26,754 nt of DNA from Pseudomonadota bacterium (lineage in GTDB: Bacteria > Myxococcota_A > Polyangia > Haliangiales > Haliangiaceae), in the NCBI GenBank assembly GCA_026387715.1, contig JAPLLF010001100.1, forward strand, positions 1-26,754, given 5' to 3'. This document shows positions 2,499 to 2,542 of this stretch, in pieces. The translations under genes and the position numbers were made by a program. Under the pieces are notes generated by a model. The model saw only the letters and a program-made list of their open reading frames with translations, had not been told where the DNA came from and did not search any database. The stretch's first letter is position 1, and each line of letters starts with the position of its first letter.

Positions 2499-2542
2499 CA
2501 CGTCACGGTCCCGTCACCGCAGGTCGGCACACATGTCACGGA
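2499..2542 (+). promoter_or_regulatory. Candidate Pho box: four (C/T)GTCAC units with 11-bp phasing upstream of pstS
   Basis: cacGTCACggt (2499-2509), cccGTCACcgc (2510-2520), a degenerate aggtcggcaca (2521-2531) and catGTCACgga (2532-2542). Each GTCAC starts at 2502, 2513 or 2535, a spacing of 11 or 22 bp. The array ends 20 nt before the pstS ATG at 2562. The motif has the same orientation relative to its gene as the array upstream of phoB. It resembles the E. coli CTGTCAT 11-bp Pho box (established knowledge). Confidence 0.5.

Follow-up and report, generated by a model that had tools for sequence, protein, structure and literature searches.

A predicted Pho-box operator of 11-bp-phased GTCAC repeats upstream of pstS in a high-G+C myxobacterial lineage

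By definition a Pho box consists of two 11-nt direct repeat units, in which the conserved motif is CTGTCAT for E. coli and GTTCACC for S. coelicolor (PMC4415409). Within the E. coli repeat the TGTCA tract makes the major-groove contacts and the A/T-rich flanks make the minor-groove contacts (PMC4447250), flanks that high-G+C lineages, Streptomyces among them, do not require (PMC4415409). On the side of the protein, the crystal structure of PhoB bound to DNA reveals that Arg201 bonds a guanine, that Thr194 and Val197 touch thymines and that Arg219 contacts bases between the half-sites (PMC3973317). Within the literature that we searched, no description of a Pho box turned up for Kofleriaceae, Haliangiales or M. 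xanthus.

The window analyzed here, i.e., the whole stretch of 26,754 nt, has a G+C content of about 70%, and its relevant features are collected in Table 1. Direct reading of the sequence upstream of pstS reveals an array of four 11-bp units whose GTCAC cores start at 2502, 2513 and 2535 on the forward strand, with spacings of 11 and 22 bp, while the third unit is degenerate, matching GTCAC at one of five positions in phase (TCGGC, 2524-2528) and at three of five when shifted by one base (GTCGG, 2523-2527). An earlier note on this DNA had described the units and their spacing as we find them and had placed the end of the array 20 nt before the pstS start; 19 nt lie between the array and the ATG at 2562. 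We regard the array as the predicted operator of a phosphate-starvation (Pho) promoter with the adjacent PhoB-like regulator as its putative binder, a reading to which we assign a probability of about 0.85.

Table 1. Features of the window discussed in the text; functional names of DNA elements are predictions.
Feature	Coordinates	Strand	Details
Unit 1	2499-2509	+	cacGTCACggt
Unit 2	2510-2520	+	cccGTCACcgc
Unit 3 (degenerate)	2521-2531	+	aggtcggcaca
Unit 4	2532-2542	+	catGTCACgga
Upstream Pho box (units 1 and 2)	2499-2520	+	Top matrix score in the window; exact pair in relatives
Promoter-proximal Pho box (units 3 and 4)	2521-2542	+	Occupies the would-be -35 position
-10 hexamer of the pstS promoter	2550-2555	+	TAGGGT; TAnnnT at a fixed distance in relatives
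Second operator	1530-1567	-	In the 70-bp gap between the EAL-domain gene and the regulator gene
Extended -10 of the regulator promoter	1514-1522	-	TGcTAACTG; aligns with the conserved TGCTAAGGC of relatives
Histidine kinase, 5' part, PhoR/PnpS-like	1-799	-	H-box FVANVSHELKTP; cut by the window edge
PhoB-like response regulator	803-1507 (listed as 803-1513)	-	Best NCBIfam match TIGR02154 (PhoB)
EAL-domain gene (c-di-GMP phosphodiesterase-like)	1584-2432	-	Between pstS and the regulator gene
pstS, phosphate-binding lipoprotein (MNRLAVALVVFAGC...)	2562-3578	+	TIGR00975, 288.5 bits (cutoff 205)
pstC	3580-4455	+	NCBIfam equivalog model above cutoff
pstA	about 4458-5324	+	NCBIfam equivalog model above cutoff
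pstB	5308-6195	+	NCBIfam equivalog model above cutoff

Set beside the E. coli pstS promoter, whose units were read from the genome record as CTGTCATAAAA CTGTCATATTC CTTACATATAA CTGTCACCTGT followed by TTGTCC TATTTT, the window displays the same four 11-bp units with a degenerate third, the same lack of a -35 hexamer, the same 10 nt between the last core and the -10 hexamer (a distance also found at E. coli phoB) and the same GTCA(C/T) core, and in both organisms phoB carries a box of its own. The array holds at least two direct repeats with 11-bp periodicity and a TGTCA-like core whose first T is C here; it stands in sense orientation in the place of the -35 element, about 10 bp upstream of the -10 hexamer, and boxes of this kind recur before several phosphate genes (pstS, phoB, phoU, porin O/P and GDPD). 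The A/T-rich flanks of the E. coli type (PMC4447250), in contrast, are missing, the spacer being G+C-rich here (CCGTCCC; consensus C-G-T-C-C-C) instead of A/T-rich. Two further differences are that the E. coli T before the G is replaced by C in the window and in the Kofleriaceae box (C in 41 and 52 of 58 sites), and that pstS probably lacks a leader and has no Shine-Dalgarno sequence, whereas the E. coli pstS leader contains AGGAG. The earlier note had taken the core to be lineage-specific, which hardly holds, for GTCAC is the GTCA(C/T) of E. coli CTGTCA(T/C), and what differs is the preceding C together with the G+C-rich spacer.

The likeness extends to the actinobacterial systems. As in S. 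coelicolor (PMC4415409), we deal with 11-nt direct repeats in a high-G+C genome, the units varying in number and quality from one operator to the next; the core is, however, one T shorter (GTCAC against GTTCAC) and the host belongs to Myxococcota, not to Actinomycetota. Beyond Kofleriaceae, PstS has its nearest relatives in actinobacteria (L032-L035, 49-56% identity, against 39% for the Polyangiaceae protein of L042), and the corresponding pstS genes are preceded by GTTCAC units, with boxes reading GTTCACCGTCC and, in L032, GTTCACCGTCCGTTCAT, where the spacer closely resembles that of Kofleriaceae. Judging from these sequences, the resemblance in both protein and box may reflect shared ancestry or gene transfer. 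A further likeness concerns the mycobacterial SenX3-RegX3 system, which also controls pst genes (PMC4415409): RegX3 is the best match of the window regulator among solved structures (2oqr, E = 1.4e-47), a ranking that is an unfair test of the closest regulator since full-length E. coli PhoB is missing from the list of solved structures.

Relatives of the locus were collected via PstS, the closest of them (59-70% identity) stemming from metagenome-assembled genomes labelled Kofleriaceae, Haliangiales or Myxococcales. The exact GTCAC pair formed by units 1 and 2 is invariant upstream of pstS in 29 of the 33 related loci, the remaining four having variant units, e.g. GCCAT, GACAC or GTTCAC. The downstream half of the array is kept more loosely: among 30 pstS promoters, unit 4 reads GTCAC in 12 and matches it at four or more of the five positions in 18, and unit 3 reaches a match of three in five in 16, compared with a background of 9.5%. 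What is rigid is the distance to the -10 hexamer, for in 28 of these 30 promoters a regex scan located the sequence TAnnnT, with an ATG 5-8 nt further on, at precisely 48 nt downstream of the first GTCAC; TAGGGT lies at 48 nt in L005 too, there with no nearby ATG, and the hexamer of L014 lies at 49 nt. L005 (3726-3830) is the sole Kofleriaceae pstS promoter that combines exact boxes with a leader, its ATG being found some 30 nt farther downstream behind AAGGAGA while the spacing from box to TAGGGT is kept, and the fact that the hexamer stays at 48 nt even though the ATG has moved supports the assignment of TAGGGT as the -10 element. Leaders with AAGGAGA are also seen in L017 and L022, which have variant boxes.

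In the window itself, the gap from the core of unit 4 to the -10 hexamer is 10 nt (2540-2549), the pstS promoter has no -35 hexamer, and a simple scan of 1400-2700 for sigma-70 promoters and terminators yielded no terminator and no complete sigma-70 promoter, the latter as would be expected of an activator-dependent promoter. The start of pstS is laid out as TAGGGT-aagcgc-ATG, with 6 nt between the -10 hexamer and the ATG and no Shine-Dalgarno sequence; translation cannot start further upstream, the frame being closed by a TAG at 2550-2552, and the N-terminus of PstS begins directly with the lipoprotein signal MNRLAVALVVFAGC. An ATG only 6 nt beyond the -10 hexamer implies a leaderless message, and the sequence indicates that pstS is probably translated from such an mRNA, the hexamer falling within the range of 5-8 nt from the start codon that characterizes this class. 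Of the 193 first ATGs across the loci, 23 have TAnnnT 5-7 nt ahead of them, as against 1 of 790 internal ATGs, most of the 23 being pstS itself, and a Shine-Dalgarno-like word is present at just 42 of the 193. Two window genes unrelated to phosphate likewise have TAnnnT 5-7 nt before the ATG (22086-22101 and 13600-13615, both on the reverse strand), with ggcTACGATgagcgcATG at 22101 and gTTACCCTctgggtATG at 13615, and leaderless starts may be common in the host lineage.

The word GTCAC on its own is not enriched in the window, where 63 copies are seen against 80 expected, but the exact GTCAC-N6-GTCAC pair occurs twice against an expectation of 0.15, a count that 2 of 100 shuffles reach, and both pairs lie directly upstream, in sense orientation, of genes of the phosphate regulon, namely pstS and the PhoB-like regulator. 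The window and the 33 Kofleriaceae pst loci, 287 kb in all, hold 60 exact pairs, whereas 40 second-order Markov simulations yielded 1.25 on average and never more than 4. Non-Kofleriaceae pst loci (385 kb) contain a single exact pair, located upstream of pstS in a Verrucomicrobia genome (L038, 3831-3846). We inspected 56 of the 60 pairs, and all 56 lie in promoter regions and face the downstream gene, be it pstS, the PhoB-like regulator, PhoU (five loci) or a phosphate-selective porin; three more upstream pairs, those of L001 and L025 and one of L028, have no regulator gene assigned to them. In seven loci a pair is accompanied, at a distance of about 65 bp, by another in the opposite orientation, which faces a secreted protein in six cases and the regulator gene in the seventh; the secreted protein of L012 is a phosphate-selective porin of the O/P family (PF07396, E = 4e-19), which that of L027 matches weakly. 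Since divergent gene pairs carry one box per direction, box orientation appears to matter. The porin O/P gene diverges, with an opposite box of its own, from phoB in L007 (about 886, reverse strand) and from phoU in L012 (1860-3041, reverse strand), and no phosphate-selective porin gene was seen in the window.

An unbiased scan of metagenomes with the exact 16-mer GTCACCGTCCCGTCAC was noisy, many of the 80 loci retrieved being chance matches within coding sequence, and only the G+C-rich intergenic matches are informative. Among them are matches that precede pstS in four cases (L104, L113, L116 and L146), the regulator gene in four (L120, L126, L133 and L159), a TonB-dependent receptor in two (L094 and L128), a GDPD phosphodiesterase in one (L135) and an OlsB-like acyltransferase in one (L110). 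The match of L104 (1705-1720) stands before a pstS gene with a normal leader on a metagenome contig of 70% G+C, and this pair, together with that of Verrucomicrobia, indicates that the GTCAC core is not confined to Kofleriaceae. In L110 (474-600) a consensus box is found 10 nt from a TAGAAT hexamer, ahead of the Acetyltransf_5 (OlsB-like) gene, which hints at phosphate-regulated synthesis of phosphorus-free lipids. The 16-mer also occurs in one recurring low-G+C sequence, gtcaccgtcccgtcaccccaatggatgttctgg..., present in 13 loci (L082, L083, L085, L090 and nine others), mostly human-gut metagenome contigs, which looks like unrelated coding sequence. Another recurrent string, GGCAAACTNAGATC, which lies just 5' of the box in relatives and might have passed for a second motif, turned out to be the 3' end of phoU with its stop codon.

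When the whole window is scanned with a matrix derived from the relatives only, two sites alone are conspicuous, those of pstS and phoB: the best score, 19.9 bits, falls on 2499-2520, and the second operator comes next with 16.2 bits. One of 30 shuffled windows reached 19.5 bits, and the score alone is not decisive within a single window. A third match (12.1 bits, 7320-7341 on the reverse strand), a one-mismatch GTCGC-N6-GTCAC pair inside the VWA-domain gene 6210-7769, lies within the shuffle range and was set aside as probably due to chance.

The site overlooked by the earlier note, along with the -10 hexamer and the leaderless layout, is the second operator, whose cores on the reverse strand read GGCAC (1567-1563), GTCAC (1556-1552), GTCAC (1545-1541) and cTCAC (1535-1531), spaced by 11, 11 and 10 bp, and which contains the only other exact pair of the window (1541-1556). 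An exact pair is found directly 5' of the orthologous regulator gene in 15 relatives, where the promoter follows the plan GTCAC-N6-GTCAC-N9-TGCTAAGGC-N5-7-ATG; in the window TGcTAACTG (1522-1514) is followed by atgacc and then by an ATG at 1507, with one extra turn of DNA. Because the product MLGLVLVIEDE aligns with MLVLVIEDE of the relatives, we revise the start of the regulator gene from 1513 to 1507. The presence of a box before the regulator gene, in the window as in those 15 relatives, is the usual mark of autoregulation.

As for the regulator itself, position 1507 is the most likely start of its gene. The protein comprises Response_reg and Trans_reg_C domains (Pfam), shares 43% identity with E. 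coli PhoB and has TIGR02154 as its best-scoring family, at 244.5 bits, which falls below the curated equivalog cutoff of 296.2. In the alignment Arg201, Thr194 and Arg219 of PhoB are kept and Val197 is replaced by Thr, so that receiver and winged-helix domains come together with residues that contact DNA; the recognition helix reads RTVDTHVKRLREKL here and RTVDVHIRRLRKAL in E. coli, and the wing reads RGVGYRF here and RGTGYRF in E. coli. Orthologous Kofleriaceae regulators are 74-90% identical to that of the window (88.7% for L007), and 22 of the 23 share the recognition helix TTRTVDTHVKRLREKL unchanged, a constancy that matches the invariance of the DNA core. One might speculate that the change of Val197 to Thr is linked with the change of T to C before the G.

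The neighborhood agrees with such an identity. The histidine kinase gene, whose best NCBIfam matches are PnpS and PhoR, both partial, follows the regulator gene in the window, and relatives have phoB-phoR-phoU-pstSCAB clusters running in one direction, as exemplified by L007 with regulator (1025-1729), kinase (1726-3081), PhoU (3078-3761) and pstS, one pair standing before the regulator and one before pstS. Compared with its relatives, the window has phoB-phoR inverted, phoU absent and the EAL-domain gene in between. Downstream, pstC, pstA and pstB form the rest of the operon under the pstS promoter; a reading of pstA as 4568-5392 was rejected, as this frame has no family match and the correct one is that of Table 1. 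Elsewhere in the window (16022-18673, reverse strand) lies a gene for a bacterial homologue of the shell protein of eukaryotic vaults; its 883-aa product combines the shoulder domain of the Major Vault Protein (PF11978, 7.5e-24) with a vault repeat (PF17795).

Could the boxes be real and yet be read by some other OmpR-family regulator encoded elsewhere in the genome? Only 26.7 kb of that genome are visible, the adjacent regulator scores below the equivalog cutoff for PhoB, and M. xanthus, with three PhoR-PhoP pairs and an orphan PhoP4 (PMC4415409), illustrates that a paralogue could bind; we nevertheless consider this unlikely, given that the gene of the adjacent regulator has a box in front of it both in the window and in 15 relatives, that this regulator sits in the phoB-phoR-phoU-pstSCAB clusters of relatives such as L007, and that its recognition helix varies as little as the box does. 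A different objection accepts the site but inverts its sense, the repeats being a repressor operator at which protein bound over -35 to -60 keeps pstS off at high phosphate. It draws on the overlap of the proximal units with the place where polymerase binds, on the repression of some promoters by PhoB/PhoP proteins (PMC4415409) and on the fall of phoB and ugpB reporters in E. coli when PhoB~P is high (PMC4447250), but it has to contend with the lack of a -35 hexamer that unaided polymerase could use, with a spacing to the -10 hexamer equal to that of activated E. coli promoters, and with a strict sense orientation and separate boxes for divergent genes, which are needed for contact with sigma and not for simple occlusion, all of which renders repression decidedly improbable in our estimation.

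The two remaining alternatives carry still less weight. The 129-bp gap is common to pstS and the divergent EAL-domain gene, the start of which lies 67 nt from unit 1, and the array might therefore mainly serve the latter; relatives with the same array have, however, a phoU gene in the same direction upstream in place of an EAL gene, and boxes face the gene that they precede, divergent pairs having one box per direction, so that we give this possibility very little credit. Least credible of all is the view that a short G+C-rich word has clustered by chance in a genome of 70% G+C: GTCAC is common by itself (63 copies), and a shuffled sequence can come close to the matrix score of the real site (19.5 against 19.9 bits, once in 30), but the comparative data refute the idea, with 60 pairs against 1.25 expected, a fixed geometry and all inspected copies in promoters. 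What counts against the array as a PhoB-type operator is a regulator below the PhoB cutoff, a G+C-rich spacer and a third unit that matches at one in five positions in phase. The proposal of the earlier note that this is a PhoB operator is nonetheless sustained, as a prediction, by a conserved pair that lies in a fixed geometry before phosphate genes, and by a recognition helix that resembles that of PhoB.

A mechanism consistent with the array as a Pho operator may be sketched as follows. When phosphate is scarce, the PhoR kinase (1-799, reverse strand) would phosphorylate the PhoB-like regulator (803-1507, reverse strand), dimers of which would bind the 11-bp direct repeats head-to-tail. The invariant upstream pair (2499-2520), which is probably a high-affinity PhoB dimer site, would be occupied first, and from there occupancy would spread cooperatively to the proximal pair (2521-2542), the weaker of the two, located where the -35 element is missing. 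Thus bound, the regulator would recruit RNA polymerase to the -10 hexamer TAGGGT (2550-2555), which would begin transcription at the A of the pstS ATG (2562) or right beside it, so that the pstSCAB mRNA would be leaderless; through the second operator (1530-1567, reverse strand) the regulator would activate its own gene.

On a broader and more tentative level, one may envisage that the Kofleriaceae phosphate regulon rests on a rigid module of box, 10-nt gap, -10 hexamer, 6-nt gap and ATG that yields leaderless mRNAs, that its PhoB reads CGTCAC plus a G+C-rich spacer, possibly by virtue of the Val197-to-Thr replacement, without the A/T-rich minor-groove tract that sets affinity in E. coli, and that the pst/pho genes share ancestry with actinobacterial ones; taken jointly, these three proposals stand at somewhat less than even odds.

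On this reading the array is an ordinary control element, by which a textbook system is extended to a little-studied myxobacterial family and which opens no new question. It does illustrate that very distant bacteria have kept the design of four units seen at E. coli pstS, despite a changed composition of the spacer and a changed mRNA leader. For this uncultured high-G+C family, moreover, the analysis provides a usable operator consensus, cGTCACCGTCCcGTCACa, and a plan of the promoter, and with both at hand the phosphate-regulated genes of Kofleriaceae could become predictable by sequence.
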